Notes: generated from the sequence alone by a model not told the origin. Positions 22,108 to 63,987 are shown, counted from the stretch's first letter. The stretch is 64,000 bases of DNA from Escherichia coli (GCF_046105845.1 NZ_CP151004.1), one strand, 5' to 3'. A program made the numbers and translations.

Positions 22108-24200
22108 CCTCCGGAAGTCAGCCAGGGGTTAACATCGTCAGTTACTGTTTTCTTCCGTTTTTGTTTTTTAACAGGCGTGGATACCGGTTCCGGTGTGGGT
22201 GACGGTTCGGTACTGTCCGGGACACACTCCAGCCAGGTTTCCCGGCTCGCCCACTCCGGTGCATCCGGCCAGCGGATCTTTTCGTATCCATGCAGAATGA
22301 CCAGAGCCTCGGCATACACCATCAGGTCAAAAGCTTCGTTGGCACCGCGACCCGGCTTACTCCATTTCCCGTCACTGCTCCGCTCTTCATACGTCAGTTC
22401 GTCGTAAAACCAGCTCCCCAGCCAGTCAGGGAAATGCACATAGCCGGGACCTGGCGAGTCACGCCATAACGCGTTATTCACCCGGTCTTTCAGGGCATCC
22501 GTCTGAAGAAGCCAGAGCGGTACATCACCTGCGGCCTGCGCCCGTCGGCCCGTTCGTCCGGTGTTATCAGGGAATGTACGGGTGATCAGTTTTGCGCGCC
22601 GGATGCTGTCGCCCTTAAACAGGTAAATACGTTTACCAAGGCCATCACGACGGCAACGACGCCAGAATTTATAGGCATTATCAGTGACTCCGTCTTCACC
22701 GCCGGAGTCCACCGCCATTGCCATCAGTCGCATTTGTTGAGAAGGATCGGAGGCCAGCGGCCAGCTTTTATGAAAAACATCCGTCAGCAGGACATCCCAG
22801 TCTTCCGGATAGCTGGCCGGATCAATTCGCTGGCTCTCCCCGTCGCTGTCACCGCGCAATGACTGCGTGATGTTGTAACGATCAATAATCCAGCGTTCGC
22901 CACGGCTGCCATAGCCCGTTACCTGAACCACAAAACGGCGATGACGTCCCGCCTGCACATCAACTGTCGCCACCAGGAAATTAACGCCATCCGGCACACT
23001 GCGGGAAGGAACTGGCTCTGCCCGCTGCTCAAGCAGTTCACTTTTTCGTTGCTCCATGCTGGCACGGGGAAGATAAGGTAATCCCCAGTCGGTATTGATA
23101 ACCGTCTTGAGTGTTTCTTCACTTCCGGTTGTCTCGTATTCCTGTTCTGCAGCAAGCAGTTTGTAAACGAGTTGCGAGAGTGTCTGGTAAGCAGCTGCCG
23201 GACCCTCCATCCAGAATGACGCAATACGTGAGCGTCGGGGATCACCATAACGACTGCCATCCGCATTGATGGATTCACCATCCCGCAACCAGACCCCACG
23301 TCCGTTCAGCTCACGTTTTTGTTCAGGCATAATCCGTCCTGAACAGGAAGGACACTGAATATAAGCCGCCTCACTTGCCAGCACGGGATCGGCAATATCA
23401 CGGAAACCAGCAACCACATCGCCGCAGGGCTGAAAATACTCACCACAGTGTGGACAGGGCCAGTACCAGCGACGGCGATCGCCACGGTTATAGAGCGACA
23501 GTATCCCCGTGGTTGGTGGAGCCTCATGCGGTGAAGTCCGTCGCCATTTCACATCCTTCACATCCCTGCCGGGGGAACTCTCCACCAGCGTCATACCACT
23601 GGACATAAATGTGGTGGTACGTTTTGAGGCAAGAGAGAAGGCATCCCCCTCGCCATCAATATCTTCCGGAAAACGGTCATAATCCGTCAGCGCCACGCAT
23701 TTATAATCTGATGAGGACATGATATTGACTGACGGCCAGCCGATTTTCAGGTAGTTGCCAGCAAGGAATGTTCTGTCATAAACGTTGTTGTCATTTTTGT
23801 TCGGACTCAGGCGACTGACCACTTCCGGGCTGACGCGAAACGTTCTGGCAAGTCGTTTTTTGGAGTGTTCGCGGGCTTTTTCCTCCGTCATCTGAATGAT
23901 CAGCATATCAGCAGGATCGCAAATCACGTTGTAAATCACCCAGCCGTCAATCAGGCCGATAGTCTTGCCAGTTCGTGCCGGGCCAACAAATATCACTGCG
24001 TCGTATTCACGCGAGGCCAGGCAGTTCATCGGCTCAATAACATACGGTGCCACCAGCGGATCCCACGGGACTGAGTTCCCGGCCCCCATGGGCACCCGCA
24101 TATACTGAGCAACGGCATCAGCAACCCGCATTCGTCTCGGTGCGCGAAGGATATAACCTGAATCGGTTCGTGCTGCCTTTGCGGTTTCCTGATTCAGCAT
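22098..24200 (-). CDS. terminase large subunit (lambda A family)
   Basis: 700 aa; Walker A-like VGPARTGKT near the N-terminus; gene order after the small subunit. Confidence 0.85.
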   Translation of the reverse strand: MLNQETAKAARTDSGYILRAPRRMRVADAVAQYMRVPMGAGNSVPWDPLVAPYVIEPMNCLASREYDAVIFVGPARTGKTIGLIDGWVIYNVICDPADMLIIQMTEEKAREHSKKRLARTFRVSPEVVSRLSPNKNDNNVYDRTFLAGNYLKIGWPSVNIMSSSDYKCVALTDYDRFPEDIDGEGDAFSLASKRTTTFMSSGMTLVESSPGRDVKDVKWRRTSPHEAPPTTGILSLYNRGDRRRWYWPCPHCGEYFQPCGDVVAGFRDIADPVLASEAAYIQCPSCSGRIMPEQKRELNGRGVWLRDGESINADGSRYGDPRRSRIASFWMEGPAAAYQTLSQLVYKLLAAEQEYETTGSEETLKTVINTDWGLPYLPRASMEQRKSELLEQRAEPVPSRSVPDGVNFLVATVDVQAGRHRRFVVQVTGYGSRGERWIIDRYNITQSLRGDSDGESQRIDPASYPEDWDVLLTDVFHKSWPLASDPSQQMRLMAMAVDSGGEDGVTDNAYKFWRRCRRDGLGKRIYLFKGDSIRRAKLITRTFPDNTGRTGRRAQAAGDVPLWLLQTDALKDRVNNALWRDSPGPGYVHFPDWLGSWFYDELTYEERSSDGKWSKPGRGANEAFDLMVYAEALVILHGYEKIRWPDAPEWASRETWLECVPDSTEPSPTPEPVSTPVKKQKRKKTVTDDVNPWLTSGGWL

Positions 24201-24691
24201 TACTCCTCCTGCTGTAATTCCTCCTCATCATCCGCACCTGCTTCGGTCACCCGCAGGGCTATCTGATCGCGCAGATCATCAATAATGGACTGAACACGGC
24301 TCACAGCGGCAGGCTGCAGGCCGCAGTCACGTTCCAGAATATCCGGTAATGTCTCCAGCACCTGCACGACCGCTTTTGCCCAGATGGCAAACTCCCGTCT
24401 GACATCACTGGCCGGAATGAGTTGTGCCGTTTCCTGTTCGAACTTAAGACGCTCACGTTCAGACTGATACCAGGCTTTGCGTTCATGTGGATCCATTTCG
24501 CCCTCAGCAACCGGCGGTGGTAACCCCATAAATTCAGTCAGAATATCGGTCAACCGGTATAGCTTGAGTTTGTCATGTCCACCAGCGGGACGAATGTTTT
24601 TCAGTCTTGCCACGACAGTCTGGCGGTGCAGACCAGATAAAGCCGCCAGTTGATTAATATTCAGCACCAGGTTTTTCAACTCATGATCCAT
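24200..24691 (-). CDS. terminase small subunit (lambda Nu1-like)
   Basis: 163 aa; N-terminal wHTH-like MDHELKNLVLNINQLAALSGLHRQTV; immediately upstream of the large subunit. Confidence 0.7.
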   Translation of the reverse strand: MDHELKNLVLNINQLAALSGLHRQTVVARLKNIRPAGGHDKLKLYRLTDILTEFMGLPPPVAEGEMDPHERKAWYQSERERLKFEQETAQLIPASDVRREFAIWAKAVVQVLETLPDILERDCGLQPAAVSRVQSIIDDLRDQIALRVTEAGADDEEELQQEE

Positions 24692-24699
24692 ATTTCCTC

Positions 24700-24950
24700 C
24701 GGAGAGCTTTAAACATGCATCGTGCGAACAACTTTAAGAAAACGCGTTCGATGTCGAACAAAAAACACTCAATTCGACATACAAAAAACAAACAACCATT
24801 AATAATCAATAAGATGCAAAGATGATGGTGGCCGATAAGAATGCAAAAACTAGCCTTTTTCCGCGACGCTCCCGCCCCGTGGCAGGGCCCCCCCCCAGGG
24901 AGGACCCGACAGCCTGACAACCGTGACGAGCATCTGAAACAGAGCTTTAC
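24700..24950. other. putative lambdoid cos/terminase-binding region
   Basis: Position directly upstream of Nu1-like gene; repeated tcgaac/ttcgacat units followed by A tracts and a G/C-rich block (gggcccccccccaggg). Confidence 0.3.
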
Positions 24951-25244
24951 ATAATGGCGTGGGGATAATTCAGAAGGACATCACAGCATGCCCACACAAA
25001 TTAGTGTGAGTGTCCTGTTTCTTACTACGCGCAGGACTGACGAGCATGAGGGGAAAATACGCGAACCGAAATGCCTTATCTTCAGAAATGCAGCCGGCAT
25101 CCGAACTGGACGATATTGTAAATTCACCTAAATACGAGGCATTGCTGTAGTTGAATTGCAGTACTGTATTAGCCTGACAGTGACAGAATACGATATTGAC
25201 TCTGTCACTTGTGAAATGGTCAGAATGGTTAGCAGTTATGGTGA

Positions 25245-25451
25245 TCAGTCAACCACCAGGGAATAATCCTTCGTATTCTTATCGTGCTTTACTAACGCGG
25301 CCTCAATTGCCCTGAATGCTTCCAGAGATACTTGATGTTCTATACATGCAATTACAACATCCGGGTAACCCATCGAAATGGTGCTATTAAGCATAGTTTT
25401 TACACGAACCTGCTCCTGGGAGGGGGCATCAGTGTATTGATCTTTATGCAT
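25245..25451 (-). CDS. hypothetical small protein at the lambdoid/186-like junction
   Basis: 68-aa ORF with ATG start; no recognisable motif. Confidence 0.3.
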
Positions 25452-25775
25452 TTTGTCGCTCCATGCGTTTGCTCTTCACTTGCGGCTAAAAATATAACGT
25501 CAAATCACTCAGCATGAAAGAGTGAAAGTTTCAGCGCGTTTCCCTTACATAATCTGTCGTTTGTATTCTCTTCAGGCATACCGGAAAGACTAGGTATTGT
25601 CACACAACCAATACCATCGACAATCGAGATTTATATCTATTCGGTAATGTTTAAATATAACAAAACCCCGTAAAAACGAGGTTTATGGGTATTTTGTTGT
25701 CTGAAATTTATGCCGTTTAAAATCATGACGTTAGAAGCACTGTTTTTTAACGATGGCGACAAAATGGCGGCAGCG

Positions 25776-25994
25776 TCAAAGAGAGAGCGCCACCTGTCCT
25801 GATTTCATTGGATGCGGCTGAACCGGATTTGACTCTTTTGGCGTTGCAATCGAACGAACAAAAGTTTCATGGGTTACAAAAGTATGGCTGCAGTTAATAT
25901 TCTGGCACTGGTTGTAACGCTCTTTGGTCAATGAAGATACCTGAAAACTGCTGCGAGTATGGGCGGCACTTCCACACAGTGGGCAAATCATCAT
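25776..25994 (-). CDS. ogr: Ogr/B-family zinc-finger late-gene activator
   Basis: MICPLCGSAAHTRSS...ERYNQCQNINCSHTF, Cys4 pattern as in P2 Ogr. Confidence 0.85.
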   Translation of the reverse strand: MMICPLCGSAAHTRSSFQVSSLTKERYNQCQNINCSHTFVTHETFVRSIATPKESNPVQPHPMKSGQVALSL

Positions 25995-26084
25995 TTTTCG
26001 AGTTCTCCCCATTTTTGCTAAATTCACAATAATGATACCGCATTATTCCATTTTGCAAACTTAAAAGTTCTCCATTGCGAAGAA

Positions 26085-27185
26085 TCATTCCATTTCGAAA
26101 TCATCAATCCTCACTTCAAGCTCCAAACTGGTCGTAAAACCGTTATCCGGGCTGACGGTATGCGTCAGAGTCGTAATGGTCCATTCCGCATCATCTATCG
26201 GCTGTTTAAAACCACTGACCTTCACAGGCATTTCCGTGTAGAGATCTGCCCGCCCTTCTGCCAGTTGTAGCGAAAATGACGCAACGCCGCGTTGCAGGCG
26301 TTCCCACTGCATTTTCGCCGCTCGTTCGGCGTTGCTTCGGTTGGCATAAGTGCGATTAAGTACCAGCACGTTTTCATCCGTACCCACCAGGTAATCGCCC
26401 TGCTTCGCTTCTGGCTCTTTCTTCTGCTTCTTAGTTCTGCGCTTACGCTTCACCGTGGTGCTTTCTTTCTTCGCAGGTTCGCGGGTATGCAACCAGCTGG
26501 CAATTACGCCCGTGTAGGCTCCGCGATCTGCCAGGGTAAATCGGTGACTGTCGCCGTCCTTGCGTGTGATAGTGATCACTGGCAGAGGTTTACCAGTGGC
26601 GCTTTTGCCCTGCCCCTGCCGGATGAATAACAGATTGCCATTTTTCACCGACGCGATGGCACCGTACTGTCGCGCCAGCCGCATCAGAAAACTGCCGTCA
26701 CTCTCATTAGTCTGGTCTATATGCTCCACGGGCTTATCCGACAGGTCTTTACCCAGTGCCATCTTCAGCTTGTGCCGCGCGGCTATTTCCTTCACCACTT
26801 CCCCGACGGTGGTCTTATGCCACGATTTTTCACGGCGGGTATTCAGCGTTTCCCGAAAATCAGCACTTCGCGCCCGGATAGTCAGGCGGTCCGGTGCGCC
26901 AGTGTGTTCAATCTCGTCCACTGTGAATGCCCCTTTCGGGAAAAGCGGCTGCCCCTTCCAGCCCAGCGCCAGCGTAATAACCGCACCACGGCGCGGCAGC
27001 ACGATTTTTCCGTCAGCGTCATCCAGCTCCAGATCAAGCTGGTCCGCTTCAAAGCCCCGGTTATCCGTCAGCGTCAAACTCATCAGGCGGTTATCCAGCA
27101 CAGTGGTGATATCCCTGCCCTCAATACTGATGCTGAATGCGGGAGTTTTGTTGCCTTTGTTAAGCAGTTCAGAGCTGAAATTCAC
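26085..27185 (-). CDS. D: P2 gpD-like tail protein
   Basis: 366 aa, P2-like gene order D-U-T. Confidence 0.85.
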   Translation of the reverse strand: MNFSSELLNKGNKTPAFSISIEGRDITTVLDNRLMSLTLTDNRGFEADQLDLELDDADGKIVLPRRGAVITLALGWKGQPLFPKGAFTVDEIEHTGAPDRLTIRARSADFRETLNTRREKSWHKTTVGEVVKEIAARHKLKMALGKDLSDKPVEHIDQTNESDGSFLMRLARQYGAIASVKNGNLLFIRQGQGKSATGKPLPVITITRKDGDSHRFTLADRGAYTGVIASWLHTREPAKKESTTVKRKRRTKKQKKEPEAKQGDYLVGTDENVLVLNRTYANRSNAERAAKMQWERLQRGVASFSLQLAEGRADLYTEMPVKVSGFKQPIDDAEWTITTLTHTVSPDNGFTTSLELEVRIDDFEME

Positions 27186-27667
27186 GACAGCAGCCCTCCC
27201 ACCGTTTTACTGATATCGCTTAAGGCAGACGTTGCCGTGTCCTGCAGATTATTCAGTTGCGCACTGAGATCACCGAACATATCGGACAGGGATTCATCCA
27301 CTCGTTTGAGCGACAGGGTGAACTCAATCCGGCGCGGCATACCGTCGCGGAAAAACTCCGTTTTAGTCTGATTCAGTCCCTCAATCACATACATGCCGTA
27401 AATCGTGCCGCTGCCTTCAATCAGGGGCCATGCTTTCCCCTGTTCTGCCATCTGCTCCAGTGCCAGCAACGACAGCCTGCCGCCTGTTATCTCCGGCATA
27501 AGAACACCGGAAAGCGTCAGCATGTCGTTGTCCGGTCCCAGAAACTGCGTGGACGGACGACGATTTACCCGGCTGTTAGCCACATGTCGCCAGCTGCGCT
27601 GATACTGCAGTTCCTGATACGGCACGGTGCGCAGCATAAACACGTACAATCCCAGCACCATCATCAT
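27182..27667 (-). CDS. U: P2 gpU-like tail protein
   Basis: MMMVLGLYVFMLRTVPYQE matches remembered P2 gpU start. Confidence 0.85.
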   Translation of the reverse strand: MMMVLGLYVFMLRTVPYQELQYQRSWRHVANSRVNRRPSTQFLGPDNDMLTLSGVLMPEITGGRLSLLALEQMAEQGKAWPLIEGSGTIYGMYVIEGLNQTKTEFFRDGMPRRIEFTLSLKRVDESLSDMFGDLSAQLNNLQDTATSALSDISKTVGGLLS

Positions 27668-30600
27668 GCGTCGTATCCCCCCTGATCGCTGTAGTTACTC
27701 CTGGCTTTTGCCTTCAGCCTGCGTTCACGTTCATCAAGCTGGCGGGCCACCTCCCGCGCAATATCCTGCGCACTTTGTCCTGGCTGTGTCTGGATGATGA
27801 TCTGCGTCGGTGCTTCAATCCGTTGAACGGGCGGCACAGTGGCTGCACGACTCACCATCGCTTCACCGCCTTTCGCGGGAAGTGCCAAAGGGTGCAACGG
27901 TGGAAGCTCTGCTGGCGTAGCAGCAACACCCATCATTCCGGCAACAACGGCAGCCAGTGCAGCTGTATTTCTCCGGCTGGTCACATTTGCCGGGCCGTTA
28001 ACAATTTCCGGCCCGTTTTCACCGACGATGCCAAACTGCCCGCGCGGGATATACCCGCCGCTGTCATACATCCCCGCAAAGCCATATCCCCATGACGGAA
28101 AACCACCCGATGGCATCATCACTTTACCGTCTGCATTCACCGTCGCAGGTTGCTGACGCGTCACGCTTTCCGGCAGTTTCGCCTTTGCGGCCTCTTTACT
28201 GACAATGCCAAGTTTCTCCAGCAACCAGGAAACGCCGGATTTCAGCGAGTCCAGCGGATGCATGACCATATTCAGCCCTTCCGCCAGAGCCTCCCCGAAT
28301 CGTCGCCCCATTGCCGCTGCACTCTGCAGTTCGGCAGAGGTCGACTTAACGGGCGTCAGCAGATCAGTAAACCAGCCCCACAGCGCCTGTACTTTGTCGC
28401 CAATCCACTGGAACACAGGCTTAAGCGGTTCGAACGCGGCACTGACAGGACCTGCCGCCGCTTTGAATCCTTCCACCACGCCACCGAGAAATGCGGTGAT
28501 GGGCTGCCAGTATTTCCAGACAACCAGCGCCACACCCGCCAGTGCAGTAACCACAAGACCTATCGGACTGAGCAGAGCACCTAACAGACCAGAGACGGCA
28601 TACAGGGCAACGCGCAGCATCGCCAGTGGACCGGATGCGAGCATACGCAGCACCGTGCCTGTGGCAGCCAGTCCGCCGCGTAGTACCGCCAGTGGATTCA
28701 TAAACATCACAGCAACCGCACGTAAACCGGATAATCCAGACCGCAAAAGTGCAACCGGCGCACCTGCTACAGTTTTCAGGATATTTCCCGTCAGTAATGC
28801 CGTGCGGCGCAAAGACGACAACGGCGCAGTAAGTAAACCTGCAGCGTTGCCCGATGAAGCAAGCCCGCGTCGCAGCAGTGCCAGTGGTGCGCCAGCCAGC
28901 CAGGACAACGCGTTGCTGGTTCGGGTTACTGCTGCCGTAACGGAAGGTAACGTTTTGATACCCAGCACAGAGAATCCCAGACGGATGACTGCCAGCGGCC
29001 CCAGCACTGCAGCCAGCGCCACCGCTAAGGTGCCGAGGCCCACGGTAACGGCAGCTACCACAGCGGCTACTTTCATCAGAGTGCCCGTCAGTTCCGGGTT
29101 AGCTTCCACCCAGCGACGCAACGCCCCCGTGACGCTTTTCACCGTGTACAGAATATCCATCAGCGGCTGGCGCAGCGTTTCCCCCAGGCTGCTGAAGGTG
29201 TTCTGTGCTCCGGTTTTGACCAGCAACCACTGAGCAGAAAGTGAATCCTTGTTGATGTCGGATTCTTTCTGCATGGAACCGAGCGCATCATTGCCCGCTG
29301 TCAGTTTTAACTGGCGCTGAAGTTCCGGCAGGTTGTTTGCCAGTTTCGCTGCGTCATCGCCAAACTCTTTACCAAACAACATGGTCATGGCAGACAGGCG
29401 CTTATCCTGTGGCAGCGCATTCACCTTCTCCAGCACGCGCTGGATAGTTCCCATCGCATCCTTCGTCATCTGCTTTTCAATCACTTCTGGATTGAGTTTC
29501 AGCAGATTCATCCCTTCAAAGAAACTCTTGCTTTGCATGGTGGCAATGGACAATTCACGCACCATCGCGTTTGCTGCACTGGCTGCAACCTCAGGCGCAG
29601 CGCCGAGTGTCAGGAAGGTGGAACCCAGCGCCGCCGCTTTACGATAATCCAGACGGTCAGCCACACCGCCCAGGCGTTGCATGACATCAATGATGTCCGC
29701 CCCTTTCGACATGGCGTTATCATCCAGATAGTTCAGCGCATCACCGAGCTGCTCAATATTGCGGGTAGGGATTTTGTAGAGCTGGGCGATTTTCCCCAGA
29801 CTTTCTGACAGTTCATCCGCTGGCAGTTCAAAGGCTGTTGCCGCCTTTGCCGCCGTGCTGGCGAAGGCCAGCAGGTCACGTTTCTGATCTTCCCAGCTGT
29901 CGTCAGGGTTTGCGACGTTCATGCGCGCACCACCTTCAACCAGTGCAGCGAAGTCCACCGCACCGTTTTCCATCGGCAACTGTTCGCTGGCAGCCTTGAT
30001 GGCATCCTGCATTTCATAAAAACGTGCAGTGCGGTTGCCATTATCGTCACGCAGACCATTGACCTGCTTTGCCACACCTTTCATGGCATCTTCCATGCTG
30101 GTATAGCTTTTTACTGCCGCCATCACTGGCGCACCCATTGCCAGCCCTGCAGCCGTGGTGGTAGCTCCGGCACCTGCAATACGATCACGCACCTCCAGCG
30201 AACGGGCATAACTGGCACGCGCTGCATTCATCCTGCGCTGAGCTTCCCCCAGTCGCTTCAGCCGCGCCTCCTGTTTCGAAAGTTCCTGGTTATAACGTGA
30301 TGTTTCACGGGCTAAACGGGCAGTTGCTCCCGCATCGTCTTTCGCAGAAATTCCCGCCCGGTACAGTTCAGCACGCACAAGCGCCGTCTGCTGCTGCAGC
30401 TTTTTCTGGCGTTCTTCTAGGCGCTGAACAGCCAGCCGTTGACGGCCCAGAGCAACAACCTGACGTTGCGAAGGCGGCCCCATCGCTCCCAGTTCCTGAC
30501 TGAGCAAATTTGCACGCTGGCGGGCATAGTTCAGCCTGTCGCCTAATTTCTGATTTTCTGCCTGCAGCTTTCGGAAGCTGTCCAGACTGCTCCCGGCCTG

Positions 30601-30741
30601 ATCAAGCTGCTTTATTGCATCGCGGGATTTTTTGACAGCAGCAGCCAGTTCTCTTGAACTGGCCTGCGCAGATCGAAATGGGCGGGTGAGCTTGTCAACC
30701 GCATTAAGAATGACCTGCAGACGCAGGTTGTTATCACTCAT
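27664..30741 (-). CDS. T: tail tape-measure protein (P2 gpT-like)
   Basis: 1025 aa, coiled-coil N-terminus, hydrophobic central block. Confidence 0.85.
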   Translation of the reverse strand: MSDNNLRLQVILNAVDKLTRPFRSAQASSRELAAAVKKSRDAIKQLDQAGSSLDSFRKLQAENQKLGDRLNYARQRANLLSQELGAMGPPSQRQVVALGRQRLAVQRLEERQKKLQQQTALVRAELYRAGISAKDDAGATARLARETSRYNQELSKQEARLKRLGEAQRRMNAARASYARSLEVRDRIAGAGATTTAAGLAMGAPVMAAVKSYTSMEDAMKGVAKQVNGLRDDNGNRTARFYEMQDAIKAASEQLPMENGAVDFAALVEGGARMNVANPDDSWEDQKRDLLAFASTAAKAATAFELPADELSESLGKIAQLYKIPTRNIEQLGDALNYLDDNAMSKGADIIDVMQRLGGVADRLDYRKAAALGSTFLTLGAAPEVAASAANAMVRELSIATMQSKSFFEGMNLLKLNPEVIEKQMTKDAMGTIQRVLEKVNALPQDKRLSAMTMLFGKEFGDDAAKLANNLPELQRQLKLTAGNDALGSMQKESDINKDSLSAQWLLVKTGAQNTFSSLGETLRQPLMDILYTVKSVTGALRRWVEANPELTGTLMKVAAVVAAVTVGLGTLAVALAAVLGPLAVIRLGFSVLGIKTLPSVTAAVTRTSNALSWLAGAPLALLRRGLASSGNAAGLLTAPLSSLRRTALLTGNILKTVAGAPVALLRSGLSGLRAVAVMFMNPLAVLRGGLAATGTVLRMLASGPLAMLRVALYAVSGLLGALLSPIGLVVTALAGVALVVWKYWQPITAFLGGVVEGFKAAAGPVSAAFEPLKPVFQWIGDKVQALWGWFTDLLTPVKSTSAELQSAAAMGRRFGEALAEGLNMVMHPLDSLKSGVSWLLEKLGIVSKEAAKAKLPESVTRQQPATVNADGKVMMPSGGFPSWGYGFAGMYDSGGYIPRGQFGIVGENGPEIVNGPANVTSRRNTAALAAVVAGMMGVAATPAELPPLHPLALPAKGGEAMVSRAATVPPVQRIEAPTQIIIQTQPGQSAQDIAREVARQLDERERRLKAKARSNYSDQGGYDA

Positions 30742-30867
30742 CGTTGGCCCCGCTTCTCTGAATCGCTTTATACCGCCATTCCAGCACTTCGGTCAGCGGC
30801 ATAACGTCAGTAACGGATGGCGGCCAGTGAAAAATGGTGGCGATATCTGCCACCAGATCGTCAACCG

Positions 30868-31170
30868 TCAGGCTGTCGGTAAACCGGCAAGCACCGACTT
30901 CTTCAACAAAAAAGTGACAACCTCAACCGACATGGCAGTGAGATCTGCCGGGTCCATCTCTGCAATTTCCTGTGCAGTCAGTGCCGGACTGGAGATGCGG
31001 GGGATCACGGTCATCATCGCGTTTACATCCATATCCATAATGGCCTGCAGGCGTGTACCGCGCAGCGCACCGGACTGCGGTTTACGCAGCACAATTTCGG
31101 TGATTTCTGTTTTACCGCGCTTGATGGGGGTATCCAGTTGAATGGTCTTTTCAGTCTGCTTATCGCTCAT
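30868..31170 (-). CDS. E: tail assembly chaperone gpE (E-prime via frameshift)
   Basis: 100 aa upstream of T; slip site within its 3' end. Confidence 0.8.
   Translation of the reverse strand: MSDKQTEKTIQLDTPIKRGKTEITEIVLRKPQSGALRGTRLQAIMDMDVNAMMTVIPRISSPALTAQEIAEMDPADLTAMSVEVVTFLLKKSVLAGLPTA
30907..30913 (-). promoter_or_regulatory. -1 frameshift heptamer TTTTTTG for E/E-prime
   Basis: Coding strand reads act ttt ttg ttg near the end of E, the P2-type slip site. Confidence 0.6.
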
Positions 31171-31224
31171 TTTGCTGTCCTGTCAATTGGGTTCTGGCGC
31201 GGTATCCCGCGCCGTTCAGATATA

Positions 31225-31740: not shown

Positions 31741-31749
31741 GTTGTCCCC

Positions 31750-32922: not shown

Positions 32923-33064
32923 AGTGGCGAACCTCCTGATTGGATTAGGCTTCGCCCTATGTTGAAGTGATTGTGCCTGACAAACAGCTAAGCGCAGTTG
33001 TACCGTTATTCACACAAAATGACGGTATTTGTCTGCTTGCAGGGATAATCAAAATAATGCTGAT

Positions 33065-34060: not shown

Positions 34061-34063
34061 TAA

Positions 34064-54617: not shown

Positions 54618-54678
54618 TTCTCCTGAATTTAGATAAAGGGATGCCTGGCGGGTTTACGCCATGAATTTCATTAGTTGG

Positions 54679-55020
54679 TTAATTCGGCATGGTTAGCCGT
54701 CTGGGAAATAAGCTCACCACTGCACGAAAATGATTCATTGCTTTAATCAGCTCCCGCTTTTCGTCAGTGGTCAGCTCATTAATGCTGATGCTATGACGTT
54801 CAGCTGGAATTTTTGCCATAAAGAATATGGCAGCCAGTGCCCGTTTATTTTGTTCATTATTGATATCCCGTGGATCACGCATATCTTTAATAAACCGCTC
54901 AAGCTCTGACTCAATATTCAGGCCAAAAACTTTCGCTCTTAATTCCGCAATATGATTAAGTCCATTCAGGCGTTCACCGGGGCTTAATGGAACAGTCGCC
55001 GCAGCGCCTTCAATAGCCAT
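54679..55020 (-). CDS. hypothetical early protein
   Basis: 113-aa ORF. Confidence 0.4.
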   Translation of the reverse strand: MAIEGAAATVPLSPGERLNGLNHIAELRAKVFGLNIESELERFIKDMRDPRDINNEQNKRALAAIFFMAKIPAERHSISINELTTDEKRELIKAMNHFRAVVSLFPRRLTMPN

Positions 55021-55184
55021 TGGTTCCCCCGTTTTTTCGTTGATAGTTCTGCCAGCAATTCATCTTGTGAACGGCACGGATGCCAGCGTTTACCATCCTC
55101 ACCCATGATCCAGCCGTGACCGTAGTGCATTGCCGGACTTTGTTTTACCAGCAGCGATGCAAATGATGGTTCTTTCGTCAGCAT
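54984..55184 (-). CDS. hypothetical early protein (186 fil position)
   Basis: ORF 54984-55214; start assumed at MLTKEP. Confidence 0.35.
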   Translation of the reverse strand: MLTKEPSFASLLVKQSPAMHYGHGWIMGEDGKRWHPCRSQDELLAELSTKKRGNQWLLKALRRLFH

Positions 55185-55191
55185 AAGCACC

Positions 55192-55707
55192 TCACAGCAA
55201 ACCGAATGAAGCACCGAGGCCAGTCACGGTATCAACTGCACTCGCCATCGCAGGATTAGCCTGTAAACGGGCCTGCAATGAAACAGCAGCCAGCGCCATC
55301 AGTCGTGTAACAGAGTTAATGCTGCTGATCGCATCACGACGGCCTGCACTGGTTTTTACATCGCCAGAAACCGCACCTGCCGCGACACGCCCTATCTCTG
55401 CAGTTGCACTCATGACGTAATGCGGCAGTTTCTCTTTTGCCACCTCATTAATCGGTACACATGGCAGGCAGTGAATCTGTGCCAGAAAGCCATCTACCAG
55501 CGTTGAATCTTCAGTCAGATCGGTAAGCAGCCAGATTTCTGGCGCATTGAGCTGATGCGGTTGATCTGGGTTGAGTTTGTTTCGCAGAGTCTGGACATTC
55601 ATTCCTGCACGTTCTGCCAGCTTCGCCATATTGTGACGAAGTGCAAAAGCTCTACAGGCTTCATCAAAATGCGGGTGTTTGGAAACTTGGTAATCAAACA
55701 TGGTCAA
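55192..55707 (-). CDS. cII: CII-type lysogeny establishment regulator (phage 186 CII-like)
   Basis: [45 protein letters not shown] closely matches remembered 186 CII. Confidence 0.85.
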
Positions 55708-55733
55708 TGCCTCTGATGTATTTCAGAATCGAA

Positions 55734-55955
55734 CTAATTAAGGTTTAGATTGCATTCTGAAAGCGCATCAACGGTCATGGCTGCTATGTTGATCATCACT
55801 TTTTCGCGTTTTTTATCTTTCCGCAGACGGTGACGGATAAGACGTCCATCAGCCAACATGTCATTGATAGTATCGATGGATAGCCCTGTCAGCTCGCTAT
55901 AACGTTCAATAGTCACATGAGGCGTGGTAAGAGTGATTGAAATGTTAGGTTTCAT
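55734..55955 (-). CDS. Apl/Cox-type excisionase/regulator
   Basis: 73 aa, first gene of the lytic operon, divergent from cI. Confidence 0.55.
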
Positions 55956-56080
55956 GATGCAACATTCCTCGTTTAATGTTGATTAATCAGGACGAATACG
56001 GATCGTTTGTATTTTGTGAACATCATAAACATACGATCGCATAATGAAATCGTCAAGACAAAAGTTCACTTGGAGTGACC
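55956..56080. promoter_or_regulatory. immunity switch region between apl-like gene and cI
   Basis: Intergenic; imperfect inverted repeat gatcgtttgtat...atacgatc (56001-56039). Confidence 0.4.
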
Positions 56081-56650
56081 ATGAATTTGGAGAAAGGCGG
56101 ACGAGGCGCTATAGAGCGCATGGTAGAAGCATATGGCTTCAAGACTCGACAGGCGTTGTGCGATCACTTAGGAATCTCTAAAAGTACTCTCGCCACACGC
56201 TATATGCGTGACTCATTCCCTGCTGAATGGGTAATCCAGTGCGCACTTGAAACGGGCGCCTCGCTTAACTGGCTCACGACCGGACATGGTTCAAAGCAAA
56301 CTTCAGGTAATACAAATACTATGGAAGTCGTTAAATATGTATTATCTGATGGAACCTTGCAGGAAGATGGTTTTTATATTTTCGATAAAGAATTTCTACC
56401 ATCTACGCTCAAAAATCCGTTTGTAATCACCGATAACAATTCCGTTTTTATTTGCGATAAAGAGTTTAACGATATTCGTGACGGCAAATGGGTAATAAGT
56501 ATTGATGCCGAAGTAACAATCCGCGATATCACTCGTTTACCTGGTGGAAGAATCTTAGTTGAAGGTGGAAATAGGGCTTTCGAATGTAAAAAAGAAGAAA
56601 TCGAAATTATTGGAAAAATTATAAGCATAACAGTTAAGTACTTTGAGTAA
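56081..56650 (+). CDS. cI: CI-type immunity repressor (186 CI-like)
   Basis: ATG at 56081 after GGAG; N-terminal HTH (…AYGFKTRQALCDHLGISKSTLATRY…) and CI-like C-domain. Confidence 0.75.
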   Translation: MNLEKGGRGAIERMVEAYGFKTRQALCDHLGISKSTLATRYMRDSFPAEWVIQCALETGASLNWLTTGHGSKQTSGNTNTMEVVKYVLSDGTLQEDGFYIFDKEFLPSTLKNPFVITDNNSVFICDKEFNDIRDGKWVISIDAEVTIRDITRLPGGRILVEGGNRAFECKKEEIEIIGKIISITVKYFE

Positions 56651-56700
56651 TATAGGAATGTTTTTATGCTTGGTAAAGCATTTGTTGTGGTGTAAAAAAT

Positions 56701-57624
56701 ATGTCAACTCAAAAATTAAAATTTAGCCATATCAAAAACGATCTGAAAGCAATAGTTATGCAGAATCGTGGAGGGCAAAAAGTTATTGAGCGTATACTCC
56801 TAGCCTATGGCTTCAAGTCACGACAGGCATTATGTAATCATCTAGGTATTTCCCAAAGTACTATGGCCAACAGATATGCACGTAATACCTTTCCTGCAGA
56901 TTGGGTTGTTATATGTTCCATAGAAACAGGAGCATCAATTGAATGGTTAGTTCTTGGTTCAGATACTGCTCCTTCATCAGAGCAATATTCTGAAAAACAT
57001 GCCGTTAATGGCCTTTGCAATGAAGTATACATTCCCACTATAAAGTTCGATAATGAAAAACTCATGAATTTTAACCGAGGGGGTAAGGCAACAATAGAAC
57101 GAATTGTCGAGGCTTACGGTTACAAAACGCGCCAAGCATTAGCTGATCACCTAGGTATTTCAAAAAGCACATTAGCCACACGATACATGCGTGACATTTT
57201 TCCTGCAGACTGGGTTTTGCAGTGTGCAATAGAAACGGGCCATTCTATTGAATGGATTTCATTTGGTACAGGAGAAATGAAAAACACAAAAAATAAAGAT
57301 ACTTTAACATTAGTGAAAAAAGTATTAATCAATGGCAAGTTAATAAATGATGGCTCATATTTATTTGACCCATGCTTTCTACCTTCCAATTTAAAAAATG
57401 CATTCGTAGTATCTACCGAAGACTCTGAATTAATATGTGAAATGGGTTTTAAAGATGTACATGATGGTAAGTGGCTAGTAAATATTGATGGAGAGAATTC
57501 ATTTAGAATGATAACTCGACTACCTAAAGGACGAGTTTATATTTCATCCCAAAATCACTCTTTTGAATGTTCGCTTACAGACATTGAGTTTATTGCAAAA
57601 GTTATTATAAGTTGTTTACATTAA
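56701..57624 (+). CDS. CI-repressor paralog with a duplicated N-terminal HTH domain
   Basis: 307 aa; two tandem copies of GG..IER...AYG.K.RQAL..HLGIS.ST.A.RY.R..FPA.WV, then a CI-like C-domain; AT-rich. Confidence 0.6.
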   Translation: MSTQKLKFSHIKNDLKAIVMQNRGGQKVIERILLAYGFKSRQALCNHLGISQSTMANRYARNTFPADWVVICSIETGASIEWLVLGSDTAPSSEQYSEKHAVNGLCNEVYIPTIKFDNEKLMNFNRGGKATIERIVEAYGYKTRQALADHLGISKSTLATRYMRDIFPADWVLQCAIETGHSIEWISFGTGEMKNTKNKDTLTLVKKVLINGKLINDGSYLFDPCFLPSNLKNAFVVSTEDSELICEMGFKDVHDGKWLVNIDGENSFRMITRLPKGRVYISSQNHSFECSLTDIEFIAKVIISCLH

Positions 57625-57649
57625 GTAAATTTTTCATGGAGACTTCATA

Positions 57650-59167
57650 GTGAAATGTGGTGATTGTAATTGGAACTGGGATGAAGAAACTACCTTTATA
57701 TTAGACGACGAAGAGGAAATTCTTTCCAAAGACAAACTTAATCGGAGACACTATGCAGAATATCTATATTTTTATCTTAAGGAAAAGGGGCAAAAGAACA
57801 ACACGGTAATCAACCTTAATGCAGAATGGGGAGCTGGTAAAAGTTTTTTCATAAAGAGATTTTATAACTCAATAAAAGATGCACACCCATGCGTTTACAT
57901 TGATGCCTGGAAGCAAGACTTTTCTGATGATGCATTTTTAACCCTTTTTTCTTCTTTGTCACAACAATTGCAAACATATGCAGGAAAACTTGATGCTCGA
58001 TTGATACAAAGCGGCCATGCTATCGGACGCTTTACAAAAGGTGTTCTACCTGAAATCATATCTGGCCTAATCAAGACTTATGCAGGAGTAGATAACGTAG
58101 GTGATATAGCCAAAGAAGCCTCATTAATAATGCTGAAGGAACACCAGGAAAAACTGAAGAGCATTAAGGTATTAAAAAAAGAACTAACGTTATGGTCTAG
58201 GTTGGCATATGAAAATAGTTTTTCATGTCCTATATTTATCTTTATAGATGAATTAGACAGATGCAGGCCAGATTATGCAATTTCTCTTTTAGAGATTGTT
58301 AAACATATATTCGATATTAAAAATTTTGTCTTTATTATTGCTACTGACACAGATCAATTACAACATTCAATCAAGAATGTTTACGGTAATGATTTTTCCG
58401 CAAATGACTATTTAGGCCGTTTTTTTCATAGAAGATTTACTTTAAAACAACCTGAACTTAAAGATTTAATTAATGGTGTTATTGGTGATTATATTGGTAC
58501 CGATTTTGAAAATATCACATCAAAAACATACCCACTAACAGCAACATTAGAAGACTTTTCAATAAATATTTCCAACGTATTTGAAGCATTTGGGTTAAAT
58601 CTAAGAGACTCAATCCGAAATACTGAAAGGTTAATAGACATTCTTAAATCTGATTTAGTCAAAAAGAAAGTAGATTATATTTTTATAATTTCGCTAATGA
58701 TTATATATGATAAGGATCGTCAAATTATAGATGGACTAATTGGTCGAAGAAATGCAGCACAACGTTTCACTGATTCGATAAAGCAAAGCTCCAATTTAAA
58801 AGGTGTTTCTCAAGCCATCCTTGAATTAAATCTTGATACAAATCAGCAAAGAATAGGTGTCAATTATATCTATAGAACGGCGAGCAGTAGATTATTCATC
58901 TCACAGATCGAGCCCAAAATAAATTTAACATTAATAAATTACTTAGATGTTGCATTGTATTTTATTAATAATATAAACATGCTTAAATCAAGTATAAAAA
59001 ACAATGGGCAAAATTCACTAATGATTATATCTCAACAAGGCCCTATTGATGGTGATACAGCTATAAAGTATTTGCAAGGAGCCCTTATAGAGAATGGTCT
59101 GAATACATCTTTTTATGCCTTACATAATTACATTGAATTAATTGAACTGGCCACATCATTTGATTAA
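57650..59167 (+). CDS. KAP-family P-loop NTPase
   Basis: 505 aa, GTG start after GGAG; Walker A NAEWGAGKS; Walker B IFIFIDELDRCRPDY; AT-rich by eye. Confidence 0.7.
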   Translation: MKCGDCNWNWDEETTFILDDEEEILSKDKLNRRHYAEYLYFYLKEKGQKNNTVINLNAEWGAGKSFFIKRFYNSIKDAHPCVYIDAWKQDFSDDAFLTLFSSLSQQLQTYAGKLDARLIQSGHAIGRFTKGVLPEIISGLIKTYAGVDNVGDIAKEASLIMLKEHQEKLKSIKVLKKELTLWSRLAYENSFSCPIFIFIDELDRCRPDYAISLLEIVKHIFDIKNFVFIIATDTDQLQHSIKNVYGNDFSANDYLGRFFHRRFTLKQPELKDLINGVIGDYIGTDFENITSKTYPLTATLEDFSINISNVFEAFGLNLRDSIRNTERLIDILKSDLVKKKVDYIFIISLMIIYDKDRQIIDGLIGRRNAAQRFTDSIKQSSNLKGVSQAILELNLDTNQQRIGVNYIYRTASSRLFISQIEPKINLTLINYLDVALYFINNINMLKSSIKNNGQNSLMIISQQGPIDGDTAIKYLQGALIENGLNTSFYALHNYIELIELATSFD

Positions 59168-59229
59168 AAGCATTGTTTGAATAAACTAAACCATACATTG
59201 ACCACTGGTCAAACATACAGTTAAATTTA

Positions 59230-59248
59230 GCCCTCTGATATGAGGGCT
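59230..59248 (+). terminator. hairpin plus T-tract after the KAP gene, abutting the int start
   Basis: gccctc-tgatatg-agggct then TTTATT, then ATG of int. Confidence 0.55.
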
Positions 59249-59253
59249 TTATT

Positions 59254-60306
59254 ATGGCAGTACGAAAACTCACCACAGGAAAATGGCTTTGCGAATGTTA
59301 CCCCGCCGGACGTAGTGGGCGTCGTGTGCGTAAACAATTCGCCACCAAAGGCGAAGCACTGGCTTTTGAGCGTCACACGATGGAAGAAACCGAAGCAAAG
59401 CCCTGGCTGGGTGAATCAGTGGATCGTCGAACACTGAAAGACGTGGTTGAGCTATGGTTCAAACTACATGGTAAATCTCTGACTGCTGGGCAGCATGTCT
59501 ATGACAAATTGCTGCTGATGGTTGACGCTCTGGGCAATCCCCTTGCAACTGATCTAACCTCTAAAATGTTTGCCCACTATCGAGATAAACGCCTGACAGG
59601 TGAGATCTACTTCAGTGAGAAATGGAAGAAAGGAGCAAGCCCGGTCACCATTAACCTGGAGCAAAGCTATCTAAGTAGTGTTTTTAGCGAACTATCCCGC
59701 CTGGGCGAATGGTCGTATCCGAACCCACTGGAGAACATGCGAAAATTCACCATCGCAGAAAAAGAGATGGCATGGCTTACCCATGAGCAGATTGTTGAAT
59801 TACTAGCTGATTGCAAACGTCAGGACCCAATTCTGGCACTGGTAGTTAAGATATGCTTAAGCACAGGCGCACGCTGGCGAGAAGCCGTAAATCTTACCCG
59901 CTCACAGGTGACCAAATACCGAATTACCTTTGTAAGAACGAAGGGGAAGAAAAACAGAAGCATCCCTATCAGTAAAGAGCTTTACGAAGAGATCATGGCG
60001 CTTGATGGGTTCAATTTCTTCACAGACTGCTATTTTCAATTTTTATCCGTGATGGAAAAAACGTCTATCGTGCTCCCTCGCGGTCAACTCACACACGTTC
60101 TGCGCCATACGTTTGCGGCGCACTTCATGATGTCGGGTGGAAACATTCTGGCTTTACAAAAAATTCTCGGACACCACGATATAAAAATGACTATGCGTTA
60201 CGCACATCTGGCACCGGATCATCTGGAAACGGCGCTCCGTTTCAATCCTCTGGCAACGCTGCCAAGTGGCGACAAAGTGGCGGCAGCGGTTGGCATTACC
60301 CCGTAA
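59254..60306 (+). CDS. int: tyrosine integrase (P2/186 Int family)
   Basis: MAVRKLTTGKWLCECYPAGRSGRRVRKQFATKGEALAFE; LSTGARW; HxLRH; terminal Y region MRYAH. Confidence 0.9.
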   Translation: MAVRKLTTGKWLCECYPAGRSGRRVRKQFATKGEALAFERHTMEETEAKPWLGESVDRRTLKDVVELWFKLHGKSLTAGQHVYDKLLLMVDALGNPLATDLTSKMFAHYRDKRLTGEIYFSEKWKKGASPVTINLEQSYLSSVFSELSRLGEWSYPNPLENMRKFTIAEKEMAWLTHEQIVELLADCKRQDPILALVVKICLSTGARWREAVNLTRSQVTKYRITFVRTKGKKNRSIPISKELYEEIMALDGFNFFTDCYFQFLSVMEKTSIVLPRGQLTHVLRHTFAAHFMMSGGNILALQKILGHHDIKMTMRYAHLAPDHLETALRFNPLATLPSGDKVAAAVGITP

Positions 60307-60442
60307 TAACCACCACTGACCACCAACCCAACTTATTGTTTTTACTCTAAGTTATTGTTTTCATTAACCCGTTTACATAAATGGGTAATTTGTATTGTTG
60401 AATAGCATCTGATGAGAAATTGATGCTAATATTATAAACATA

Positions 60443-60616
60443 CTAGATTAAATCAATCTTGATATCATAGCTTTCAAGACCAGTCATTTTTTCCCGTGCA
60501 GTAAACTGGATACTGGTAACTTCTTTCCCGGTCTTTTTCTTAAGCTCAATGATTTTTTTTGTTATATATTCAGAAATATCTGCTTCTGTTTTTGTTTTTA
60601 ACTCTTCAATGTTCAT
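60443..60616 (-). CDS. GnsA/GnsB-family small protein
   Basis: ORF 60443-60709; MNIEELKTKTEADISEYI...FTAREKMTGLESYD matches remembered GnsB. Confidence 0.7.
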   Translation of the reverse strand: MNIEELKTKTEADISEYITKKIIELKKKTGKEVTSIQFTAREKMTGLESYDIKIDLI

Positions 60617-60788
60617 CATTTCCTCTTTTAGTCTGTTATGACTTTCCTGGTACACAGTAGTGTCAATTATATGGAGCAAACGTATAAAAGATAAGATGAA
60701 ACATCGCAATAATCAACATACGACGGTCTAAATTTCACACAAACAGATAAAGATGATTATCATTTATTATCAATGCATTAGAATCAAA

Positions 60789-61019
60789 TCAATTCAAGAG
60801 TCTCATTGCTGCTTCCAGAATTTCTTCTGAAGTTACATGTCGATCCGCTGCTACATAAATGACTTTATGATCTCCGGTCAGAGATGGAAACCCTGCAGCC
60901 ATTACAGTGAGGTGTGTTGTTTCGCCATTTGGATATTCACGCATGATGGTGTTAACTCCGGTCATCACTGGCACTACCATTGCTGGTTCAGAGTTAAAAA
61001 AAACTATTATTTTTTTCAT
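60789..61019 (-). CDS. hypothetical small prophage protein
   Basis: ORF 60789-61058, internal ATG at 61019. Confidence 0.35.
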   Translation of the reverse strand: MKKIIVFFNSEPAMVVPVMTGVNTIMREYPNGETTHLTVMAAGFPSLTGDHKVIYVAADRHVTSEEILEAAMRLLN

Positions 61020-61290
61020 AATGTTACCGTAATATGTGAGTATCCATCGACTAGACACTAAGCAAAAAAGCTCCCGAAGGAGCCTTCATTTTCACTTTCT
61101 TAAATCTAACGACAGACGGCTAACATTTAAGTATTGTGAAATATTATCAAATGTAATCATCATTGATTTACAAAAGATACATTTTGCCCCGAAAGGATTC
61201 CTGTCAGAAACATCAAAAGATGATGTTCTATACTGAGAACCATGGCAACACGGGCATCTAAAGTGAATATGGTTTGTAATATTTTCTACC

Positions 61291-61503
61291 TCAAAGTGCC
61301 ACTACATGAACAGCCGCGGGGCCTTTAGGTCCGTTCTCAATACCAAATTCGACTTCCTGATTCTCAGTTAACGTTTTGAAATCGTTGCTCTGAATAACTG
61401 AGAAATGGACAAACACATCTTTGCTACCATCTTTCGGCGTGATGAAACCAAAACCTTTTTCAGGGTTAAACCATTTCACTAAACCAGTCATTTTGTTAGA
61501 CAT
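61291..61503 (-). CDS. CspA-family cold-shock protein (CspI/CspB-like)
   Basis: [23 protein letters not shown]...VHFSVIQ RNP motifs; long AT-rich leader. Confidence 0.9.
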
Positions 61504-61866
61504 CATTATTACCTTTTGAAGAAGTTAGCCCTTGGGCAGAATGGTCCGAAAAAAAATATCAGAGAGAAAAACCAACAAGGAGATCTCAAGAGGTACAAAT
61601 AATAAAATTATAACAATGACTGCTTCAGATAATTTTGTAACAAACCAGAACACCATTAACGCATGATTAACCAACCATAGCAAGGATTACTTTTGTAAAG
61701 AAAAACACACGAATGAAACAATAGCTTTATTTATTAATAAAACGTGTCATTCTGTCTAATGACCTTTTATCTTACCCTTAAGATTTCAAGGATTTTGACT
61801 CATGGAAGAGTCCTTTTTATTTAAATTTCACATTCAGCGCTAAAAATAATCCGATTTAATATTAAT

Positions 61867-62894
<1,028 letters not shown>

Positions 62895-63215
62895 GGATAT
62901 TTATCAGGATTTATCGGCTTCAAATCCCCGGATATGTTAAATCTTACCTCACCAGTGATGGGCACTGGCGGGAGGAGGATGTCAATCTGATAAACACAGA
63001 GGTGACTATGGATTACACAAATCTACCAAAACAAACTTTTGCTGATTTAATCGCACTCAGGCAAGCAGTCGTAGCTCTAATCAACTTGTTGCCGGAGAAG
63101 GAAAAGGAATTAGTTAAAGCGCTTCTTAACAGAACTGCCGCCGATTTTTCATCATATCCACTGACAGATGACCTTGCGGACCTTCCTGAATTAATTGCAG
63201 CGTCCGCCATTAAGC

Positions 63216-63767
63216 TTACTGAAGAGATTTACCCTCCTCAAAAATCTTCACAAAATTCCTGCGAGTAACTTCAATGCAATAATCGTAAAACGCCGCAAAC
63301 TGCTCATCGCGGCGTTTTTTTTCATCTTCAGAAGGGATCAGCACCGACAATTTTTTATTCAGATCAGCGACGCTGCCCTCCAGTTTTTCAATGGGCGATT
63401 CAATATCATCTTTTTCTGACCGCAATGCCGTCGGTGGCGTCTTCAGAGAACCAGTAATTCTTCCCGGTAGCTTTCCTTTGTAGGTTATCCACACATTCTG
63501 CGCCTCTAAAATTATGGGGCGCTTTTCCGGCGACTGCTCATCCCCTACACATAACCCGGCAGCAACATCCAGGAATACCTGTCTGATTCTCATTCTGGCT
63601 GCTGCCTCATAAAACTCCAGCGCGGCACCTTCAACACGGTCCAGCGAGATGTCCAGGTCAAAAATTTCACCGTCAAAGCGTTTTTTGTCCCGTAAGGCTA
63701 CAGTTACCGCCACTTTATTCTCAAAATTGCGGACTCCTTTCACAACCAGTTCATAGTCTTGTGTCAT
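63216..63767 (-). CDS. hypothetical protein inserted between holin and endolysin
   Basis: ORF 63216-63788 (TTG); ATG at 63767 with purine-rich RBS. Confidence 0.45.
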   Translation of the reverse strand: MTQDYELVVKGVRNFENKVAVTVALRDKKRFDGEIFDLDISLDRVEGAALEFYEAAARMRIRQVFLDVAAGLCVGDEQSPEKRPIILEAQNVWITYKGKLPGRITGSLKTPPTALRSEKDDIESPIEKLEGSVADLNKKLSVLIPSEDEKKRRDEQFAAFYDYCIEVTRRNFVKIFEEGKSLQ

Positions 63768-63771
63768 TGGA

Positions 63772-63987
63772 TTACTCTCTTCTCGCAACCTTACGCCTGT
63801 CTTCTTTAATCTTGAAATAAAGGTTTGTCAGATACGTCAGCAGGCCAAAAACCAGACTACCCAGCACACCGATTGCAGCCCACTGTGACGGAGTTACTTT
63901 ATCGAGTAACTGCAATGCCCAGAAACCAGCATTACCAGCCGATGTGCCATAGGCGATACCTGTTGTTAACTTATCCATTGATTTCAT
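63772..63987 (-). CDS. holin (EssD/EssQ-like)
   Basis: [26 protein letters not shown]...[14 protein letters not shown] matches remembered EssD. Confidence 0.85.

Follow-up and report, generated by a model that had tools for sequence, protein, structure and literature searches.

A 186-like prophage nested in a Qin-like lambdoid prophage of Escherichia coli, probably through integration at a secondary site

The 64,000-nucleotide stretch of Escherichia coli DNA analysed here (GCF_046105845.1, NZ_CP151004.1; hereafter the window) opens in the chromosome with osmY and prfC, enters the late genes of a lambdoid prophage, passes through 34,696 bp of 186-like DNA running from ogr to int (one copy of the core sequence counted), and returns to the lambdoid at its gnsB, cold-shock and lysis genes (Table 1). 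By its genes and alignments the inserted segment, 25698-60393, reads as a complete 186-like prophage of the P2 family. It was very probably integrated by its own tyrosine integrase, at a secondary site within the resident lambdoid. A preliminary description, made from the sequence alone, had placed a 186/P2-like prophage between the lysis, cold-shock and gnsB genes and the Nu1-like gene of a Qin-like lambdoid, and alignments with empty sites agree; the range that it gave, 24200-63987, contains the insert together with lambdoid flank on both sides.

Boundaries and the empty site

The boundaries are fixed by empty-site alignment and not by a repeat. In Ec1119 (NZ_CP126600.1) and many other genomes the matches to window 23500-25697 and 60381-62500 overlap by 13 bp, and the empty site reads ...aaaaccccgtaaaaacgaggtttATGGGTAATTTGTattgttgaatagc.... 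Window 60381-64000 is the next stretch of the Ec1119 prophage (99.97% identity), its part up to 62500 matching Ec1119 and other genomes at 100%. A query of 141 bp across the empty junction is covered to at least 80% in 631 of the 5,426 complete E. coli genomes searched and partially matched in 2,056, and the joined flanks are 99.5-100% identical among the matches listed. The 186-like block thus parts genes that are neighbours in lambdoids known with the site empty, and att repeats bound it on both sides.

The same alignments settle whether the lambdoid halves could belong to two different prophages with the 186-like element between them in tandem, a finding that the preliminary description had named as fatal to its proposal. 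Superficial gene-order appearance alone speaks for such an arrangement; it is refuted by the 631 genomes in which the halves adjoin with order and orientation unchanged, at the identities just given, and its probability is next to nil.

The left junction reads ...gaggtttATGGGTATTTTGTtgtctgaaattt... and the right junction ...ccgtttacataaATGGGTAATTTGTattgttgaatagc.... The attR core is identical to that of the empty site, which we call attB' (ATGGGTAATTTGT), and the two cores form an imperfect 13-mer direct repeat with 12 of 13 positions identical. It emerges from the comparison of 25.4-25.8 kb with 60.3-60.5 kb that the preliminary description had advised after failing to see a core by eye. The repeat by itself is weak evidence, because 3 of 100 shuffles of junction zones of equal size yield a 12/13 repeat.

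Table 1. Features of the window (positions counted from its first nucleotide)
Feature	Position	Strand	Evidence
Host lambdoid, left (late-gene) part; descending from 25684: 68-amino-acid (aa) hypothetical protein, DUF1441, terminase, portal, protease/capsid fusion, tail genes, lom, stf, tfa, pin-type invertase, ydfK, dinI-like gene	4387..25684	-	99.5-99.9% identity to the annotated Ec1119 prophage
IS3-family insertion sequence (IS), 1,258 bp	11691..12948	+	Open reading frames (ORFs) match the IS3-family transposase model
Nu1-like (DUF1441) gene	24200..24691	-	RefSeq annotation of the near-identical Ec1119 gene; ORF list
Intrinsic-terminator-like hairpin AAACCTCGTTTTTACGGGGTTT with T-rich tail	25663..25684	-	Terminator scan; fold -11 kcal/mol, z = -2.1
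attL core ATGGGTATTTTGT	25685..25697	+	Lambdoid flank match ends at 25697; canonical-prophage match starts at 25679
186-like prophage body	25698..60380	both	ORFs, PHROG matches, alignments to phage records and Ec1117
ogr/Delta-like zinc-finger late-gene activator	25776..25994	-	RefSeq, 99.8% identical Ec1117 locus; PHROG transcription regulator
DinI-domain ORF, 101 aa, at the position of 186 tum	50301..50606	-	Pfam DinI, 1.9e-22; PHROG 189
LexA-box-like palindrome CTGTTTATATTTACAG	50776..50791	+	Pattern search; 170 bp upstream of the DinI-domain ORF
186-type immunity switch	55192..56650	both, face to face	PHROGs, Pfam, Ec1117 RefSeq names
cII	55192..55707	-	PHROG CII-like activator
apl/cox-like excisionase-repressor gene	55734..55955	-	PHROG Cox-like excisionase
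cI	56075..56650	+	Pfam Phage_CI_repr and Phage_CI_C
Cargo of low guanine-plus-cytosine (GC) content (30-38%) between cI and int	56701..59167	+	PHROG, PADLOC
Tyrosine integrase gene of the inner prophage	59254..60306	+	Pfam Int_N and Phage_integrase; PHROG integrase
Terminator-like hairpin downstream of int	60367..60386	+	Terminator scan and fold; 3' half is core ATGGGT
attR core ATGGGTAATTTGT	60381..60393	+	Lambdoid flank match starts at 60381; integrase-side match ends at 60393
Host lambdoid, right part; prophage runs past the window end	60394..64000	-	Ec1119 alignment and annotation
gnsB	60443..60616	-	Ec1119 alignment and annotation
ynfN, ynfQ, cspI		-	Ec1119 alignment and annotation
rzpQ	61867..62364	-	Ec1119 alignment and annotation
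rrrQ	62361..62894	-	Ec1119 alignment and annotation
ydfR remnant		-	Ec1119 alignment and annotation
essQ	63772..63987	-	Ec1119 alignment and annotation

The usual rybB target and its look-alike in the lambdoid

The int-proximal 1.2 kb is matched in 1,134 complete genomes (97.5-99.8% identity among the matches listed), and in the genomes inspected the int region adjoins rcdA. The far end of the Ec1117 prophage adjoins ybjL/rybB; there an Rfam RybB match of 105 bits ends in the core ...GGTTGATGGGTTTTTTGTT, from which the sequence continues as phage DNA in the manner of the window from 25698. A 600-bp query running from int through the core into rcdA is fully matched in 1,040 of the 5,426 genomes, and in prophage-free genomes its match begins exactly at the first base of ATGGGTTTTTTGT. 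These alignments identify the usual target of the integrase as the 3' end of the small RNA (sRNA) gene rybB, with ATGGGTTTTTTGT as the apparent core. The rybB attB is AGGTTGATGGGTTTTTTGT and attP is ...CATAAATGGGTTTTTTGTTG...; in the phage record OM835953.1 (KP12) int, attP and ogr are contiguous, with the core ATGGGTTTTTTGTTG and the reading ...cccgtttacataaATGGGTTTTTTGTTGtctgaaattt.... The exact integrase protein was found in ten distinct genomic contexts, all ten of them at rcdA. The inner prophage thus shares with the rybB-targeting group a near-identical integrase and the ATGGGTTTTTTGT core in attP. According to the genome paper of E. coli W, P2-like prophages also use the rybB non-coding RNA as a site (PMC3032704).

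Another direct repeat of the inner prophage, TGGCGACAAA(A/G)TGGCGGCAGCG, identical at 21 of 22 positions (25754-25775 and 60267-60288), was considered as the att site and rejected. Its copies lie in the phage arms, one just past the ogr stop codon and one inside the 3' end of int, and they are present in canonical prophages and in the free attP of KP12 as well. It is longer than the att core and may be an arm-type binding site of the integrase.

Five att sequences are known, namely attL, attR, attB' as the empty site, the canonical attB and the attP of free phage, which makes this a fully resolved case of prophage-into-prophage integration; they fit what would be expected of classical site-specific recombination. 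At core positions 7 and 8 the canonical attP has TT, attB' AA, attL AT and attR AA. The attL core is a hybrid, with A at position 7 as in attB' and T at position 8 as in attP, which would put the switch from lambdoid to phage between these two positions; in attR the switch from phage to lambdoid would lie at or left of position 7. The two switch points imply that strands were exchanged inside the shared ATGGGT block or at its edge, and the hybrid core narrows the position at which this integrase may exchange strands. In the proposed course of events, a phage that normally targets rybB would have used the lambdoid look-alike AGGTTTATGGGTAATTTGT instead. Exchange in the shared block would give an attL made of the lambdoid arm, ATGGGTA and then phage TTTTGTTG, and an attR made of the phage arm followed by the lambdoid core sequence.

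Several points weigh against this account. Position 7 is A in both attL and attR, which is unexpected because heteroduplex segregation from a TT attP gives one A and one T; the explanation must be mismatch repair, or a subsequent change, or an incoming phage whose attP was a variant. The window does not extend to rybB of the source genome, so whether the primary site was free lies beyond it. The account also depends on the assembled sequence, in which an error is formally possible.

Such an error would be an assembly or scaffolding artefact in which a contig carrying a rybB-site prophage was misjoined into the lambdoid. Neither junction occurs in any other record of the collections searched, as a misjoin would predict, but the junctions share 13 bp only, and an assembler would not be misled by so short a stretch. 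Each coincides exactly with sequence like the known integrase core, in the correct polarity, and neither end carries attached rybB or rcdA sequence. Furthermore, the hybrid attL core, A followed by T, exists neither in empty sites nor in canonical prophages. We therefore consider an artefact extremely unlikely.

The look-alike attB' lies on the minus strand between the gnsB stop codon and the gnsB terminator hairpin. It shares 16 of 19 positions with rybB attB (AGGTTNATGGGTNNTTTGT), and there is no similarity beyond them. Their local alignment scores 23, compared with 16.6 +/- 2.1 for shuffled sequences, of which 8 in 500 reach 23; the motif AGGTTNATGGGTNNTTTGT occurs once in the window, where 0.04 occurrences are expected. 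In empty lambdoids the hairpin (25663-25684) stands ~50 bp downstream of gnsB, and here it follows ogr of the inner prophage. On the plus strand, ATGGGT is the 3' half of a terminator-like hairpin at three locations: RybB, the stretch following int, and attB', where the hairpin is weaker. The integrase appears to recognise a terminator-shaped sequence, and the lambdoid seems to carry a similar one by coincidence.

Prophages have been found inside prophages before. Nakamura, Ogura, Gotoh and Hayashi (2021) described lambdoid phages in lambdoid prophages of Shiga toxin-producing and enteropathogenic E. coli (PMC8112680). The attB sequences of 21-121 bp reported there derive from the chromosome, sharing 81-87% homology over 96-309 bp with loci in it, and recur in many strains (PMC8112680). 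By analogy, the lambdoid could have captured a copy of the rybB attB, so that attB' would be an evolved landing pad at which nesting recurs and is selected. The 16 matching positions do include five B-arm bases left of the common core, and the site is widely conserved downstream of gnsB, with matches in ~2,056 genomes, but the extended flanking homology of the published cases is missing, the similarity ending at 19 bp and at a score that shuffles can reach. A permissive Rfam scan of the empty site (E <= 10) gave no RybB match. In addition, the site is occupied in none of the 5,426 complete genomes, though at least 631 carry it and 1,040 have the phage at rybB, and the exact integrase protein was always found at rcdA. 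A landing pad of this kind is very unlikely in our judgement, and attB' is best described as a secondary site that arose apparently by chance, not as a fragment taken over from rybB. The possibility that the lambdoid holds a rybB in hidden or degenerate form was considered separately and rejected, as the Rfam scan was without RybB and the alignment was limited to the 19-bp block.

A search of the 5,426 genomes for a second one with either junction found none, the best coverages being 63%, 53% and 70%, each from one side. The exact junction patterns are also absent from IMG/VR viral contigs, GTDB species-representative genomes and JGI metagenome contigs. With the site available in at least 631 genomes and the phage found at rybB in 1,040, the insertion appears to be a rare secondary-site event for an integrase that normally acts at rybB, a point that the preliminary description lacks. 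In the literature searched, nothing was found on rybB together with attB and integrase, or on P2-like phages inside prophages.

Consequences and relation to known systems

The insertion interrupts no lambdoid reading frame. It parts gnsB from its terminator and leaves 34.7 kb between the lysis/moron genes and the Nu1-like gene, and thus between these genes and the cos/Nu1 region, the location of cos being probable. If the lambdoid part beyond the window matches Ec1119, an excised composite would measure ~75 kb, for a head suited to a genome of ~45 kb. Judged by the packaging limit of lambda, ~75 kb would lie far above the capacity of a lambdoid head. The inner prophage should be able to excise alone, because it looks complete and keeps an identical 7-bp ATGGGTA in attL and attR. 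In practice, prophage callers may merge both elements into one prophage of ~75 kb or split the lambdoid in two.

Late transcription of the lambdoid is oriented along the minus strand, from the holin gene towards gnsB. Since gnsB is cut off from its terminator, this transcription would be expected to run on into the inner prophage. It would read int and cI in antisense and apl, cII and A in sense, thereby following the direction of the lytic promoter in the well-studied face-to-face switch of 186. That lambdoid induction flips or excises the inner prophage, with the lambdoid serving as an induction sensor, is a speculation that we hold unlikely. In the same speculative vein, the terminator-like sequences that resemble rybB and follow gnsB in hundreds to thousands of E. 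coli genomes could be a reserve landing site if rybB is occupied.

The arrangement resembles the cases of Nakamura et al. in that an integrase-bearing prophage sits at an att site in another prophage with att repeats on its flanks, in that the outer prophage is defective, like every one of the published outer prophages (PMC8112680), and in that the site lies in an accessory (moron) region and not in an essential gene. It differs in the 186/P2-type guest, in the 16/19 bases shared with the chromosomal site, and in being unique among the 5,426 genomes.

Compared with the rybB-site P2-like prophages Rybb*W, Rybb*B and Rybb*Cr of the E. coli W genome paper (PMC3032704), the integrase/att family, the 186-like early region and the P2-type late genes are alike, whereas the prophage described here lies in a lambdoid at prfC and carries different cargo between cI and int.

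Like P2 and lambda lysogeny at secondary sites, the present case involves a tyrosine integrase, a partly identical core site and imperfect or hybrid att cores. For P2 such lysogeny reportedly takes place at multiple loc sites in E. coli, as Barreiro and Haggard-Ljungquist are said to have described in 1992. In contrast to P2, the integrase and core are of the rybB type (ATGGGTTTTTTGT) and the site belongs to a prophage instead of chromosomal DNA.

Nesting and secondary-site integration of P2-family phages were thus already known, and no new mechanism is revealed. The unusual points are: i) a 186-type guest in a lambdoid host, which extends the published lambdoid-in-lambdoid nesting to P2/186-type phages, and ii) the use of a short chance look-alike of an sRNA terminator, by which nesting is possible without a captured chromosomal attB.

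Gene content of the two prophages

The host lambdoid lies at the start of prfC. Homology with prophage-free chromosomes ends at window 4386, inside the 5' end of prfC, and the junction at 4386/4387 is common to 475 genomes; presumably the lambdoid supplies a replacement 5' end. In Ec1119 the lambdoid spans ~45.5 kb from prfC to an integrase gene adjoining yjjG. The RefSeq order there is essQ, rrrQ, rzpQ, cspI, ynfQ, ynfN, gnsB and a hypothetical protein, then DUF1441 (Nu1-like, the first gene of the packaging/head operon), terminase, portal, protease/capsid fusion, tail genes, lom, stf and tfa, and, at the prfC end, a recombinase gene, ydfK and a dinI-like gene adjoining prfC.

The lambdoid late order read in the preliminary description matches this annotation, except that its tail series is broken by an IS3-family element. 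Window 1497-11690 corresponds to positions 1-10194 of the Ec1119 locus (99.5% identity) and window 12949-25697 to positions 16518-29264 (99.9%); the IS element between them has replaced 6,324 bp of tail genes present in Ec1119, namely the greater part of J, all of I, K, L and M, and the C-terminal portion of the tape-measure gene. The flanking ORFs retain J model positions 1081-1163 (the last ~82 J residues) and a C-terminally truncated tape measure. The 3-bp flanks of the element are unequal (act and gtt), without a simple target-site duplication, which suggests an IS-associated deletion and not a simple insertion. Because 6.3 kb from J to the tape measure gene have been replaced, the host lambdoid is tail-defective irrespective of the inner insertion. 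A 150-bit Rfam match to isrC, an Hfq-binding sRNA family, at 11759-11881 falls in the 5' part of the IS element and is IS sequence rather than a free-standing sRNA gene.

The label Qin-like holds for the late/moron region, where the essQ-rrrQ-rzpQ-cspI-ynfN-gnsB block and the stf/tfa/pin end carry the same RefSeq gene names as K-12 Qin. Unlike Qin, this lambdoid keeps its full head genes and part of its tail genes, head and tail genes being absent from what we take to be the K-12 Qin gene list. By location it is not Qin itself, because the site of Qin is ydfJ (PMC3032704), whereas this lambdoid has prfC on the flank seen here and yjjG on the far side in Ec1119.

A search for a lambda-type cosN (GGGCGGCGACCT) gave no meaningful match, and naming the GC-rich stretch at ~24870-24935, upstream of the Nu1-like gene, as a cos candidate is only a guess. 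Other features of the lambdoid include a cspA-type thermoregulator in the 5' untranslated region upstream of cspI (Rfam, 117 bits; 61245-61650) and an Rfam IS009 match (221 bits) within the tail-fibre-assembly gene (6818-7016). At the prfC-proximal end, two LexA-box-like palindromes, CTGTTTATTCATACAG and CTGTATACAAACACAG, lie at 4567-4610, just upstream of the dinI-like gene (4626-4874).

In the inner prophage, ogr is the last gene at the attL end. From there the minus strand carries D, U, the tape measure gene, E, FII, FI, a tail-fibre region with a DNA invertase gene, the baseplate genes I, J, W and V, then S, R, the lysis genes, X and the head genes L, M, N and O. Terminase P and portal Q follow on the plus strand. 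Next come a low-GC cargo gene and, on the minus strand, the DinI-domain ORF, the replication gene A, a Dam-type methylase gene, fil, cII and apl; cI, further cargo genes and int complete the plus strand. The order and sizes of the ORFs match a complete P2-family genome. PHROG and Pfam matches include portal, terminase, tail-fibre, A-type replication nickase, ogr-type regulator, Cox/Apl-like excisionase-repressor, CII-like activator, two-domain CI and tyrosine integrase. The P2-type late module is present with its head genes (Q, P, O, N, M and L), its contractile-tail genes (FI, FII, E, T, U and D) and ogr, as is 186-type immunity with a two-domain CI, Apl/Cox, CII and a cI-int segment facing the lytic operon; Pfam Phage_186_Fil and Phage_CP76 are present in close relatives. 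The integrase and the 186-type regulators are apparently intact.

The late region aligns with phage records of 34.8-35.6 kb at 87% coverage and 96% identity, and both ends of the prophage agree at 99.8-99.9% with the one at the rybB site of Ec1117. Among deposited phage genomes the nearest, at 96% identity over 25698-50600, bear the names of Klebsiella phages (KP12 and the Kp48xx series), although the integrase and att ends are widespread in E. coli, with 1,134 complete genomes. The host names may be unreliable, or this phage type may cross genera.

The DinI-domain ORF is a candidate SOS-controlled antirepressor, a Tum-like function being attributed to it from its position. Together with the LexA-box-like palindrome upstream, of a pattern with three matches in the window compared with 0.77 expected by chance, it hints at possible SOS inducibility like that of 186.

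The cargo between cI and int encodes a 307-aa protein with duplicated CI-like helix-turn-helix regions and a 505-aa KAP P-loop NTPase, the PADLOC candidate system PDC-S20. In relatives this slot is filled by SNIPE/T5orf172, an OLD-like ATPase/TOPRIM, YdcA or another KAP NTPase, and it is a variable hotspot, probably for anti-phage defence. A second low-GC (38%) segment at 47863-49501, adjoining Q at the position of the P2 old-type locus, consists of a 474-aa ORF (phrog_13260, without a PADLOC match) and an 81-aa neighbour.

Each prophage carries a candidate invertase. That of the inner prophage (33065-33676) lies beside an inverted alternative fibre tip and a fibre-assembly gene (33659-34483); the lambdoid serine recombinase (6096-6686) has weak, below-cutoff matches to invertase models. 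The two are ~27 kb apart and might cross-react or drive a large inversion.

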